The notes below the pieces were generated by a model that searched no databases, was not told where the DNA came from, and worked only from the letters and a program-made list of their open reading frames with translations. Below are positions 1,565 to 5,655 of a stretch of 64,000 bases of DNA, piece after piece. The stretch is from contig JAVRCJ020000007.1 in NCBI GenBank assembly GCA_034530875.2, positions 96,001-160,000 of the forward strand, read 5' to 3'. Positions within the stretch are counted from its first letter, which is position 1. Every line of letters starts with the position of its first letter. This DNA is from Nostoc sp. DedSLP01 (GTDB lineage Bacteria > Cyanobacteriota > Cyanobacteriia > Cyanobacteriales > Nostocaceae). The position numbers and the translations under genes are program-made.

Positions 1565-2875
1565 TTAATATTTAACTTTTGTCTCCTGCTCTAAAAACAG
1601 GTTGCCAATATCAAACAAAAGCTGCATAGTACCTCGATAGCCAACTTTGGTAAACTGATTGGCATCTAAACGGTCAAAAATGGGAATACCTTGACGGTAG
1701 AGAGGAATTTTTAAACGTTGAGCGATCGCAACTGCATGAGAATTAGTTATGAGTAAATCAGAACCAACAGCCAGTTGCTCAAAGTCTTCTAAATCACCAA
1801 TAGTAACACTAGGAATCGGCAGTTTTTCTAATACAGGAGAACGCGTTGTCGTCACTGCCGCGTGAATTTGCACTCCCAGCGATTGCAAGAAATAAACTAT
1901 TAACCAAAGTAAATCTGGTTCCAATGCTAAAGCAACTCGCTTGGAACCAAAATAAAAATGATTCTCTAACATCAAATATTGCAACTGACGGCGCTGCTGG
2001 CGATATTTCTCTGCTACGCTAACACCACTGATATCCGCCAATGCTTGCAAGAATTTATCTACTGCTATTAGTCCCGTGAGTTCGCCAAACACCTCATAAG
2101 GGATGTTGAATCTCTTTTCTAAAATTTGTGCAGCACCGCGCATACTTTCACCTAATGCCAAAGTGAACGCAGAACTAGCAATTGAGCGCAACTGTTCTAA
2201 AGTCGTGCCATTTGCTGTCATGACACCAGAAGAATCTTCTATGCGAGCATCTAGAACGCCAGAAAGGTCAGGTACAACAATTGGTACAAGTCCAAAGGAG
2301 GTAACAATCTCTTTAATTTCTCGTACATCCCCAGGAGTGAAAGCAGAACTCACCAAAATTGTGATTTGTGTTGGGCAAGCCTTTTGCTTTGAGCATTTTT
2401 CGGGAATTTCCTTAACTATACTCTCGACTGCACTAGCAAACCCATCCTGCAATGTACCCTTAAAATCTGGTGTAGAGACAAGCACAATTGGTAAATAATC
2501 TAATTCTGGATGGCGGTGGCGAATCTCCTTGACAAAGCGTTCCATGTCATCACCTCTAGTTTCCACAAGTCCAGTAGTACAAAGACCGATAATTTCCGGT
2601 TTTGATTTCTTTACCAACGTGAGAATTGCTTGTTCGACTCTCTCCTCACCACCCAAAATCGTTGCAACTTCCGTCATCGCGGTAGTAGAAAGAGGAATCG
2701 TCTGACGAAAATGTTGTACTAACACTGTCTTTGTCAAAGCTGTGCAACCTTGAGAACCGTGTAATAAAGGCATCATTCCCTTCACTCCCAAAAAAGCCAA
2801 GGTTGCACCTATAGCTTGACTTTGCTTGAGAGGATTAACTGCTACTGATGTACTTGTAATGCTAACAATTGCCAT
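1565..2875 (-). CDS. nifN: NifN-like nitrogenase cofactor scaffold beta subunit (second-copy paralogue)
   Basis: MAIV...VNPLKQSQAIGATLAFLG..HGSQGC..IPLSTTAMTE. The ATG at 2875 overlaps the nifE stop (TAATG), so it is preferred to the ORF-track start at 2926. Confidence 0.9.
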   Translation of the reverse strand: MAIVSITSTSVAVNPLKQSQAIGATLAFLGVKGMMPLLHGSQGCTALTKTVLVQHFRQTIPLSTTAMTEVATILGGEERVEQAILTLVKKSKPEIIGLCTTGLVETRGDDMERFVKEIRHRHPELDYLPIVLVSTPDFKGTLQDGFASAVESIVKEIPEKCSKQKACPTQITILVSSAFTPGDVREIKEIVTSFGLVPIVVPDLSGVLDARIEDSSGVMTANGTTLEQLRSIASSAFTLALGESMRGAAQILEKRFNIPYEVFGELTGLIAVDKFLQALADISGVSVAEKYRQQRRQLQYLMLENHFYFGSKRVALALEPDLLWLIVYFLQSLGVQIHAAVTTTRSPVLEKLPIPSVTIGDLEDFEQLAVGSDLLITNSHAVAIAQRLKIPLYRQGIPIFDRLDANQFTKVGYRGTMQLLFDIGNLFLEQETKVKY

Positions 2876-4275
2876 TAGATTTCCTCCAATGAAGTAGGGG
2901 ATGAGGCAGAATTTTCTATTTCCCACGGAGCAGTCTGGCGTACTTGCTCCCAGACAGGATTATAAAAAGTGACATATAATTCTCGCGCCAATTCCAATAT
3001 TCCTGTATAACCTGTATAGGCGCGATCGCCTTGTCTATTAATATCTAAGAACGGAATCTTAGCTATTAGAGCAGTGTCTAGATATCGGCTATCAGTAATT
3101 AAAATATCAGCTTGATTATTGTTGATTACCTGCAAGATTTCTTGAGGAGCGTCTGATTCTAAAACTATGGTATCTCGACCTAGCAAACTTTTAAGTCTAA
3201 CTAATTCGTCTTCATTATTACTCTTAGTACAGATAGCAATCACTTCCATCCCTAGTTTTTGGGCTGCAAAGATAATCAACCAACTTTTGAAATTTTTAAG
3301 AGAAAGAACAATGCGTTTTCCTTGCAATCGAGTACCATAATGAGTGAGTTTTGATTCTAAAGCACTAGTTTCTTCTGCAATTAACTTTTCGGTACGTTCT
3401 ACTAAATCAGTATCTCCCAACTTGGTAGCAATATTTCTTAAACACTGATTAATTTGTTCTATACCATAAATAGATTCTTCAATATATGGAATACCATAGA
3501 CTTTCTCCATTTTTTCCGCTACATTAATTAACGCTTTTGAAGACAATACAACGTTAAGCTTGGCATGATGAGCGTAGCAAACTTCTTTATAAAGAGCATC
3601 ACCTGTAATTTTTGATAAAACTCGGATACCTAATTTCTCTAACAAAGGTAGAAAGTTCCATATTGCACCTGCGATATTGTACTCACCAATCAGGTTAATA
3701 TCTAATGGTGTAGTAACATCTGGTTGGGCTGTTCCAATAACGTGTTCTAGTAAAGCTTCGCCAGCAACCCGGTTCCCCAAATTTTGACTGCCAATAAATC
3801 CAGGACAATGTACGGGAATAGTTGGTACTCCTGTTTTTTCAGTAATATTATTGCATATTCCTTCTATATCATCACCAATTAAAGCAGTAATACAGGTAGA
3901 GTAGACAAATACTGCACTTGGTTTGTAGCGTCTTTGTAATTCTAGAATGCCTTTGTACAGCTTTTTCGCTCCACCGAAGATAATATCGCTCTCATCTATG
4001 TCAGTAGTAAACCGTATTTTATAGAGCATCGAACCAGAAGAAAGACTGGTGTAATTTCCCCAAATACTAGCAGCACAGCCACTCGGTCCGTGGACTACAT
4101 GAGCAGCATCAGTAATTGGCACTAAAGTAATCATTGCACTATCAAAAGCACAACTTCCTTGAGCAGTTCCAGGCTGGGGTAATTGTGTAGAAGGCTTTTT
4201 TTTCTGGCGTTGCTGTTGGTTTTCGCCCTTTGATTCACTGAACGAATCATTGATTTTTTTAGGTTGAGAGTTCAT
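2875..4275 (-). CDS. nifE: Divergent NifE-like nitrogenase cofactor scaffold alpha subunit
   Basis: QPGTAQGSCAFD, PITDAAHVVHGPSGC, VYSTCITALIGDD, INLIGEYNIAG. Coupled to nifN. Confidence 0.9.
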   Translation of the reverse strand: MNSQPKKINDSFSESKGENQQQRQKKKPSTQLPQPGTAQGSCAFDSAMITLVPITDAAHVVHGPSGCAASIWGNYTSLSSGSMLYKIRFTTDIDESDIIFGGAKKLYKGILELQRRYKPSAVFVYSTCITALIGDDIEGICNNITEKTGVPTIPVHCPGFIGSQNLGNRVAGEALLEHVIGTAQPDVTTPLDINLIGEYNIAGAIWNFLPLLEKLGIRVLSKITGDALYKEVCYAHHAKLNVVLSSKALINVAEKMEKVYGIPYIEESIYGIEQINQCLRNIATKLGDTDLVERTEKLIAEETSALESKLTHYGTRLQGKRIVLSLKNFKSWLIIFAAQKLGMEVIAICTKSNNEDELVRLKSLLGRDTIVLESDAPQEILQVINNNQADILITDSRYLDTALIAKIPFLDINRQGDRAYTGYTGILELARELYVTFYNPVWEQVRQTAPWEIENSASSPTSLEEI

Positions 4276-4380
4276 TTTTTTAGGGAAAAGAGGTAGGAGT
4301 TATGATGTGGTAGCTAAATTGACAAAAATTGAGCAAGAATTTTATTTACTCGACGATATATTTCTAGCATCAAAGAAAAA

Positions 4381-4407
4381 GGAATGAGAAAGAGAATTTC
4401 TCATTCC
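4381..4407 (-). terminator. Hairpin plus U-tract between nifH and nifE
   Basis: GGAATGAGAAA-gagaa-TTTCTCATTCC is a perfect 11-bp stem, followed on the minus strand by a T-rich run. Confidence 0.5.
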
Positions 4408-4686
4408 CTAAACAATGACCAACCAATTAATAGAAGGAGTAAACAAAAAACAACAACAGCGGTTTGACCGCGTAAATATTAACAGATTAATTTCTCTTAG
4501 GAGAACTTGAAGAATTCACAAGCCGTAATTGGGATTAATCTGTTATTTGGAGAAAATTCTACTGATTTGATTGAACTTCCAGATAGTTTTAATGGTGAGG
4601 GAAAGTGAGCTAATTGCCCCCTTAATTGTTTCCGTTCCTTAGCGAGTTCTGCTATTTCTTAAGCAATCACAAAAGTCTGGCTTTTT

Positions 4687-5655
4687 TTAGCTACCAGAAA
4701 CTATTTCCACATTGCCTTTTGCCAGTGCTTCTAATGCTTCGCCTTGGGCGTCTTCTTGCTTTTTATCAGCTTCTTCTTGTGCTTTAGTGACACCAGCTAG
4801 TTTTGCAGCGTTTTCTTCACTTTCGAGAATACCAAACTCAATCAACAACTCTTCTAGCTCGTCCATTTCAATGGGTGTAGGAATAGCAAGATTTTTATTG
4901 TTGATAATCTTGTCTGCTAATGTCCGGTATTCATTAGCTTGGTTACTATCAGGTGCATACTCGTTAACTGTCATCCGGCGCAATTCTGCGTGTTGCACGA
5001 TGTTGTCGCGGGGGACAAAGTGAATCATCTGGGTACTTAATCGAGATGCCAGTGTGGTAATCAGTTCGTCTTCTCGGTCAGTTTTGCGGCTGTTACAAAT
5101 CAAACCACCCAAGCGCACGCCACCTGTGTGAGCATACTTGAGAACGCCACGAGCAATGTTATTAGCAGCAAACATCGCCATCATTTCCCCAGAGGTAACG
5201 ATGTAAATTTCTTGCGCTTTCCCCTCCCGAATTGGCATAGCGAAACCACCGCATACAACGTCGCCCAATACGTCGTAGGATACGAAATCCACACCACTAT
5301 AAGCACCGTTTTCTTCCAGGAAGTTGATGGCGGTGATAATACCCCGACCGGCGCAACCTACACCAGGTTCCGGGCCACCAGATTCTACGCATCTGATACC
5401 TCGGAAGCCTTCTAGTACCACTTCATCAAGTTCTAAGTCTTCCACTGCGCCTCTTTCCGCAGCTAAGTGCAATACGGTGGTTTGAGCTTTAGTGTGCAAA
5501 ATCAAACGGGTAGAGTCAGCTTTGGGGTCACATCCGACAATCAAGATGCGTTGGCCTACTTCTGCCATAGCGGCTAGGGTATTTTGGGAGGTGGTAGATT
5601 TACCAATACCGCCTTTACCGTAGAAAGCAATTTGTCTAATTTTGTCGTCGGACAT
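4687..5655 (-). CDS. nifH: Nitrogenase iron protein (NifH/VnfH-like), 322 aa, with C-terminal extension
   Basis: [46 protein letters not shown]. The start at 5655 follows an RBS-like GCAGGAAAA. Confidence 0.95.

Follow-up and report, generated by a model that had tools for sequence, protein, structure and literature searches.

A 64,000-nucleotide window of the genome of Nostoc sp. DedSLP01 (assembly GCA_034530875.2, contig JAVRCJ020000007.1, positions 96,001 to 160,000) contains a three-gene nifH-nifE-nifN module, the last two genes of which are here designated nifE* and nifN*, and their products together E*N*. Judged from gene order and alignments, the module is the vnfR2-vnfH locus of the molybdenum (Mo)-starvation (vanadium nitrogenase) system, behind which stands a pair derived from NifE; in this pair NifE* has lost the ligands of the nitrogenase cofactor and has kept those of the [4Fe-4S] cluster. 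Phylogeny and alignment of the relatives show one old duplication of nifE, or of nifEN, placed behind vnfR2-vnfH, and then repeated ligand loss and relaxation of the lid domain. It is highly probable that the locus is VnfR-linked, cofactor-blind and under selection, and this identity is far more secure than any mechanism. The second NifEN copy, which is carried by many cyanobacteria of soil, mosses, and lichens, probably has a job under Mo scarcity that has not been described before.

All three gene products pass the NCBIfam cut-offs (Table 1), so that their homologues are annotated as ordinary nif genes. NifE* and NifN* are 60 and 71% identical, respectively, to the canonical copies of the host genome (99.8% complete, 113 contigs), which are located on contig C13 along with canonical nifH, nifD, and nifK (numbers preceded by G, L, and C are our handles for genomes, loci, and contigs). 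The stop codon of nifE* overlaps the start of nifN*. An earlier note, made from the letters of this DNA alone, had correctly described the open reading frames (ORFs), the two TCT serine codons and the retained cluster cysteines. Its statement that nifD and nifK are missing near the module also holds, and the copies on C13 mean that the module is not the sole nifEN of the genome. No nifX was found downstream of nifE*-nifN*.

Cofactor and Cluster Residues of NifE* and NifN*

An HMMER alignment to the NifE of Azotobacter vinelandii (sequence of PDB 9iao/3pdi) places S29 and S245 of NifE* at the positions of C25 and C250, confirming the by-eye assignment of the earlier note; equivalents of these two cysteines were not found elsewhere in the protein. 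The loop SLKNFKSW aligns with YTGGVKSW, and the third cofactor ligand, C15, is lost as well, with G17 in its place. Among the residues R70, K160, K252, K357, and Q419 (A. vinelandii numbering), K252 is the sole survivor, as K247, the others being replaced by Y75, Q164, S352, and R414, respectively. Canonical cyanobacterial NifE has Cys in both the C25 and the C250 columns in 43 of 43 rows; the loss in NifE* is therefore not due to chance or misalignment. In the clade of NifE* and its relatives (hereafter E*), the C250 column holds Cys in 2 of 101 rows. Positively charged cavity residues are also lost (R75, K164, and K352), and glycine loops are replaced by varied bulky residues. Changes fixed across the whole clade are HGPIAC to HGPSGC beside a cluster ligand, A50T, G88R, E103A, and E204A. 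The [4Fe-4S] ligands are invariant, with C42, C67, and C128 (all TGT codons in the window) present in 101 of 101 E* rows and C44 of NifN* in 94 of 94.

In A. vinelandii, C15 and C25 of NifE are reported to bind NifB-co at the surface, removal of residues 4–25 leaves only the [4Fe-4S] cluster, and the C250A substitution eliminates cofactor formation, C250 being essential in vivo (available text of PMC13128457). The inner cluster site is described as ringed by Q419, R70, K252, and K357 (available text of PMC13031127). Lacking the residues of the receiving and conversion sites, NifE* is predicted, from its alignment, to be unable to serve as a scaffold for the iron- and molybdenum-containing cofactor (FeMo-co). 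The same conclusion of the earlier note thus gains support from both the lost ligands and the effect of C250A.

The AlphaFold single-chain model of NifE* has its best structural match in NifEN, with a mean predicted local distance difference test score (pLDDT) of 73; it is too poor around the cavity for the pocket to be judged, and pLDDT falls below 50 at residues 1–40 and 66–101. Invariant residues that, judged by nitrogenase motifs, are predicted to face the iron (Fe) protein are E95, F100, G134, and D136 of NifE*, and E69, E105, and G108–D110 of NifN*.

Regulator and Fe Protein Genes

A gene for a 377-amino acid (aa) regulator with helix-turn-helix (HTH) and PBP_like domains is located directly upstream of the module in 20 of 20 mapped relatives. 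In the window this gene is reduced to a stump, 82% identical to a full-length 377-aa relative over residues 1–65; Pfam HTH_3 and PBP_like are both found in a full-length relative and HTH_3 alone in the stump. It was cut by an internal deletion of about 0.9 kb (junction located by blastn), and the region upstream is intact. The cis copy of the repressor is broken in the host genome, and a full-length paralogue on contig C37 could act in trans.

The window nifH product is 90% identical over 320 aa to that of the nifH located behind a vnfR gene in G756, versus 86% to the other main NifH of that genome; it is therefore a VnfH orthologue, with a C-terminal tail about 25–30 aa longer than that of NifH1. 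The vnfR-linked nifH of G756 lies about 21 kb past vnfN, with no E* after it, in the gene layout described for Anabaena variabilis. In A. variabilis, VnfR1 and VnfR2 are reported to be Mo-dependent repressors, and vnfR2-vnfH to be Mo-repressed and co-transcribed, with vnfH processed from the vnfR2 transcript (PMC4284476, part of the text). The pair is also reported in Nostoc punctiforme and other strains without vnfDGK, some with truncated vnfR; according to PMC8461463, nothing had been established on the expression or function of vnfR2-vnfH in such strains, and the part available does not mention nifE or nifN.

The module is close to vnf genes in at least eight genomes, being located about 4–20 kb from vnfD copies in G450, G427, G428, G423, G539, G540, and G551, and directly past vnfN in G563; modAB and mop genes follow it on one named plasmid. 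Among congeneric genomes, E* is present in 49 of 55 that are vnf-bearing (vnfD or the vnfE motif found) and in 34 of 71 others, kin not being independent in this comparison. No orthologues of vnfD, vnfG, vnfK, vnfE, vnfN, or vupA were matched in the host genome. The window nifH is poorly matched, with 3–9 mismatches, by the primers that PMC4989308 gives for the moss 'nifH2 cluster' and for 'Nostoc cluster II', and the field expression data therefore cannot be tied to it.

Distribution of the Module

Within the genus, 83 of 126 other genomes carry a NifE* paralogue, at 75–92% identity. Outside the genus and within the same family, E* was found in about 40 of 262 genomes, representing 17 genera (16 genomes by score, one further and 23 by the motif HGP[SN]GC); 34 of these loci were examined directly, and for six the motif match is the sole basis. 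No clade members were seen outside the family in an order-wide sample of 401 genomes. Named carriers include Nostoc plasmids (lichen, hornwort, and liverwort isolates), Stigonema, Tolypothrix, and Scytonema.

In a search that favours intact E*, the E* ORF was full-length and open in 85 of 87 genus loci, the other two being cut by contig ends. In the same loci nifN* is intact in 80, nifH* in 78, and the regulator gene in 71. The arrangement regulator-nifH*-nifE* without a nearby nifN was observed in L255, L258, L259, L265, L267, and L268. At eight of the 87 loci nifH* has been deleted, at different breakpoints, with E*N* intact, so that this gene is not the obligatory dedicated reductase that the earlier note had made of it. 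Seven of the eight are in vnf-bearing genomes; a second Fe protein gene was seen in six vnf clusters mapped outside these seven.

A third, orphan NifE (E3), with all three cofactor cysteines kept and no nifN beside it, is encoded by 52 of the 126 congeneric genomes (e.g., L102:9403-10791, L103:7948-9327, L207:13922-15298, L260, L261, and L266), next to vnfD in several clusters. It is a candidate scaffold subunit for low Mo or vanadium.

Selection on NifE* and NifN*

Selection was measured as pairwise pN/pS and omega (NG86). Over disjoint pairs within the genus (42 for E*, seven each for canonical NifE and NifN), omega was 0.205 for E* (confidence interval, CI, 0.186–0.228), 0.120 for N*, 0.036 for H*, and 0.110 for the regulator, as compared to 0.079 and 0.081 for canonical NifE and NifN. 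For all pairs among 13 matched genomes, the values were 0.179 for E* and 0.045 for canonical NifE. Along E*, pN/pS was 0.34 at the N terminus, 0.108 at residues 36–190 of the cluster domain, 0.183 at residues 191–320, and 0.380 at residues 321–455 of the lid domain, while in canonical NifE it is flat at 0.04–0.07, N terminus included (0.054, 0.067, and 0.065 in the latter three regions). Canonically invariant sites are retained in E*, region by region, at 68 of 121, 56 of 93, and 28 of 106 positions, the last region being the lid domain, and in NifN* at 177 of 245.

These substitution patterns show a graded purifying selection, which holds the cluster domain and NifN* and leaves the lid domain relaxed. 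Read in this way, E* is not a case of simple decay. The view of the earlier note that the full-length ORFs are under selection is therefore upheld, dN/dS being not near 1.

Loss of the Cofactor Ligands

In trees with a midpoint root only, E* is a single clade (SH-aLRT 99 with 101 rows; 100/99 with 32 rows). The first branch, L255, has all three cofactor cysteines together with the signature changes of the clade, and L254 of Scytonema sp. PCC 10023 is in the same state. Other members retain single ligands: C250 alone in L203, L204, and L279, C25 alone in L207, L257, L260, L261, L263, and L266, and C15 alone, as aligned by eye, in L194–L197. The C250 position is occupied across the clade by at least eight residues (S, F, W, A, D, G, P, or C). 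On this tree, the cofactor ligands were lost several times and in different orders after the duplication. Both the variety of residues and the varied order of loss suggest that constraint was lifted, not that serine was selected, and the change is thus not specifically the selected Cys-to-Ser pair that the earlier note had suggested. Fixation of both serines does not hold clade-wide, although within the genus S245 is kept as Ser via four different codons.

Comparison with Related Systems

E*N* shares with the NifEN of A. vinelandii (PDB 3PDI, 9IAN/9IAO, and 9ONK) the fold and family, the four interface [4Fe-4S] ligands and the coupled nifE-nifN arrangement, but lacks the C15/C25 receiving site, the C250 conversion site and R70, K160, and K357, and has a relaxed lid domain. 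It is also encoded outside the nif cluster and without the downstream nifX. With the vnfR2-vnfH loci of A. variabilis and N. punctiforme, as far as these are presented in PMC4284476 and PMC8461463, the window has in common an HTH and PBP repressor gene upstream of a 90%-identical Fe protein gene, and, like them, the module is often linked to vnfDGK and metal-transport genes. In contrast to clusters of the A. variabilis layout, nifE*-nifN* follows here; the available text of those descriptions does not mention nifE.

Cyanobacterial VnfEN is likewise a NifEN-like pair in the Mo-starvation gene set, with the HGPSGC motif in common. VnfEN is reported as essential for the vanadium nitrogenase (as cited in PMC8406325, available text). 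Identity of E*N* with VnfEN was nevertheless rejected, since the two are 25–28% identical and the genuine vnfEN genes are found as distinct genes in these regions, located directly behind vnfK and co-existing with E*N* in the same genomes. Cyanobacterial VnfE and VnfN themselves score far below the nifE and nifN cut-offs (L090:4718-8000; 176 of 505 and 28 of 327 bits) and seem, by sequence, to be a nitrogenase-like pair that branches deeply and not duplicates of NifEN.

Dark-operative protochlorophyllide oxidoreductase (DPOR; BchNB/ChlNB) and CfbCD combine an Fe protein with a partner that carries a lone [4Fe-4S] cluster and no large cofactor, and the same is predicted for E*N*. However, those enzymes are ancient separate clades with hidden Markov models (HMMs) of their own, while E*N* is about 60–70% identical to cyanobacterial NifEN and has no conserved substrate pocket that is evident in the alignment.

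Possible Role of E*N*

The reading that we favour, tentatively, is that E*N* acts as a cofactor-free, non-catalytic docking partner in Mo-starved heterocysts. At low Mo, VnfR would release the promoter, and heterocysts would make VnfH and an E*2N*2 tetramer carrying only the [4Fe-4S] cluster, unable to accept NifB-co but still docking the Fe protein. The tetramer could hold or discharge the Fe protein, or compete for NifN and the proteins that deliver the cofactor, during a period in which normal NifEN would be unable to finish FeMo-co. The parts under constraint are the cluster domain, the NifN subunit and the motifs facing the Fe protein, and the released ones are the N terminus that receives the cofactor, the positively charged residues of the cavity and the lid. 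In a reductase acting on a small molecule, one would expect a newly conserved pocket; none is evident by alignment, and a non-catalytic partner is therefore favoured over a reductase.

Several points weigh against this proposal. The docking residues are candidates, judged by nitrogenase motifs. Since most loci supply their own NifN*, titration of NifN is a weakened model. Mo repression is taken by analogy from A. variabilis, whose cluster type (G756 and G753) has no E*N*, which also means that the vanadium nitrogenase does not need the pair. The module is optional: 43 congeneric genomes have no E*, and it is lost or broken in many, with remnants such as an E* that has an internal deletion (G407), a regulator-nifH* pair with no E*N* (G402 and G435), and others. 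Omega is alike with and without vnf genes (0.197 and 0.192), and the role is therefore not confined to the vanadium nitrogenase, although a recent loss of vnf would be hidden in this comparison because the pairs include ancestral branches.

The DPOR/CfbCD-like reductase proposed in the earlier note, now the second choice, seems rather unlikely to us. Electrons from VnfH would pass via the [4Fe-4S] cluster of E*N* to a substrate in the emptied cavity, in a reaction used under Mo scarcity. The kept cluster and lost cofactor ligands agree with this, as do the cluster logic shared with DPOR and CfbD (PMC13474568, available text), the intact Fe protein gene next door in 78 of the 87 loci, the serine held at S245 within the genus and the luciferase-like and HsdR_N-like genes that often follow the module. 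The fixed clade-wide changes could also be taken as its signature, but they predate the Cys loss, being already present in a member with all three cysteines. Moreover, cavity and lid residues, among which a substrate of the DPOR/CfbD kind would be bound, are the least constrained part, varying between sub-lineages with the highest pN/pS (0.38), the C250 position is as variable as described above, no substrate-pathway gene is consistently linked to the module, nifH* is dispensable in eight loci, and HMM scores are far under the cut-offs (BchN, 45 of 420 bits; CfbD, 44 of 268). Equally improbable is the corresponding origin, in which NifEN was stripped of its cofactor ligands within heterocystous cyanobacteria and E*N* with VnfH thereby became a nitrogenase-like reductase, each step still being represented by living members; if true, this enzyme would derive from NifEN and catalyse a reaction confined to Mo starvation.

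Doubtful, in our opinion, is a mixed scaffold in which NifN* and the fully liganded E3 would build the cofactor under low Mo or with vanadium, E* serving as an asymmetric tetramer's structural half or stabilising NifN*. E3, with its three cysteines and no nifN alongside, is indeed found beside vnfD and 3–6 kb away from the module in L207, L260, L261, and L266, E* is present in 46 of the 52 E3-bearing congeneric genomes, and NifN* is constrained nearly like canonical NifN (0.12 vs. 0.08). The host genome, however, has no E3, nor do 37 of 83 E*-positive genomes, and in G756 and G753 an E3-like copy occurs in the absence of N*. Little probability is also left to a slowly decaying spare, a former Mo-starvation NifEN without its job, kept because the vnfR2-vnfH transcript or mobile vnf regions carry it along. 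It would account for the stepwise ligand losses, an omega 2.5–4 times that of canonical NifE, the deletions and remnants listed above, the broken repressor of the host genome, and the vnfK stops and nifN* frameshift of G464; it fits poorly with the low omega of E*, 0.11 in domain I, which is unchanged without vnf genes, with 85 of 85 full-length E* ORFs open (in a search biased to intact copies), with the retention of E* across about 18 genera, and with E*N* outlasting nifH* where the latter was deleted.

No paper on the lost NifE cysteines or on a function for E*N* was found in a literature search that reached few subscription papers; the 2001 overview of the N. punctiforme genome is said to mention a second nifH/nifE/nifN. 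In the sources as far as available, extra nif copies in Nostoc are noted without analysis (10.64898/2026.01.15.699626), uncharacterised genes are noted in cyanobacterial vnf clusters (PMC6645180), no NifEN-derived group appears among the nitrogenase-like reductases of PMC13474568, and nothing on the function of the module is found in PMC4989308, PMC10038973, PMC8071049, PMC5452144, and PMC8406325. The present analysis adds the series of intermediates, whose first branch is fully liganded, a constraint that is graded by domain, nifH* deletions that are independent of each other, E3 and the HsdR_N-like protein as companions, and the assembly artefact at vnfD described below.

Terrestrial Nostocaceae fix nitrogen where Mo can be limiting, and they carry a selected and misannotated NifEN paralogue that is predicted to be unable to build the cofactor, which points to an unrecognised step in the heterocyst response to Mo shortage. 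The natural series of ligand losses may inform the current debate on the receiving and conversion sites of NifEN. Caution is also due with copy counts of nifH, nifE, and nifN and with nifH amplicons in these genera, as they include genes that do not belong to the Mo nitrogenase.

Neighbouring and Companion Genes

The features of the window are listed in Table 1. The hairpin in the nifH-nifE spacer is a possible terminator or processing site.

Table 1. Module genes and adjacent features of the window (positions within the 64,000-nucleotide stretch).
Feature	Position	Strand	Evidence
nifH (VnfH orthologue), Fe protein, 322 aa	4687..5655	minus	TIGR01287, 461 bits (cut-off 394)
NifE*, 466 aa	2875..4275	minus	TIGR01283, 537 bits (cut-off 505)
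NifN*, 436 aa	1565..2875	minus	TIGR01285, 560 bits (cut-off 327)
S29 codon TCT, position of A. vinelandii C25	4189..4191	minus	Alignment and codon reading
S245 codon TCT, position of A. vinelandii C250	3541..3543	minus	Alignment and codon reading
13-bp hairpin in the 411-bp nifH-nifE spacer, candidate terminator or processing site	4367..4426	minus	Best 60-nt window, -20.4 kcal/mol
5' stump of vnfR2-type repressor gene, 65 aa, HTH only	6109..6303	minus	Pfam HTH_3
Stand-alone HsdR_N-like protein without E-x-K nuclease motif	398..1327	minus	PF04313

The HsdR_N-like gene is present in 44 of the 126 congeneric genomes, 42 of which are E*-positive, and it adjoins the module in several genera; along with luciferase-like genes it is often found downstream. 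E-x-K, which we take to be the nuclease motif, is absent from the protein (motif column of 43 aligned rows).

The vnf regions of the relatives revealed further peculiarities. Two near-identical, often inverted copies of vnfDG were observed in G450:C2, G428:C2, G423:C30, G484:C31, and G498:C60. Five draft contigs stop inside vnfD beside intact vnfKEN (L269 and L271–L274), so that vnfD-based surveys undercount vanadium nitrogenase: in this genus it is indicated by vnfD in 20 of 127 genomes, and by the vnfE motif in 54. The apparent occurrence of vnfEN without vnfD in many genomes is explained by assembly breaks in five of six loci checked; the sixth, in G464, is decayed. In that genome (L073 and L270) a frameshift in nifN*, a long branch for E* and stops in vnfK read as the module and the vnf genes decaying together. 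Another locus, L208:1958-12189 (G135, from another family), comprises a full nif operon, in which nifH has a C-terminal tail of the window type and an extra divergent nifE is located between nifK and nifE.

An element of 80–100 bp at about 6612–6713 of the window has copies at the ends of at least nine contigs and adjoins a short ORF (6707–6967) with no Pfam match; the two are probably an insertion-sequence remnant. A third nifH (G000:C18:109729-110619) stands alone, without nitrogenase genes in its surroundings; over 286 aa it shares 90% identity with the window nifH. Two small proteins of about 125 aa, without a Pfam match, recur beside vnfR genes and the module (G000:C37:27162-28172; L075:3513-4364), and an ORF resembling them by eye is located close to the end of the nif cluster (G000:C13:119167-119544).

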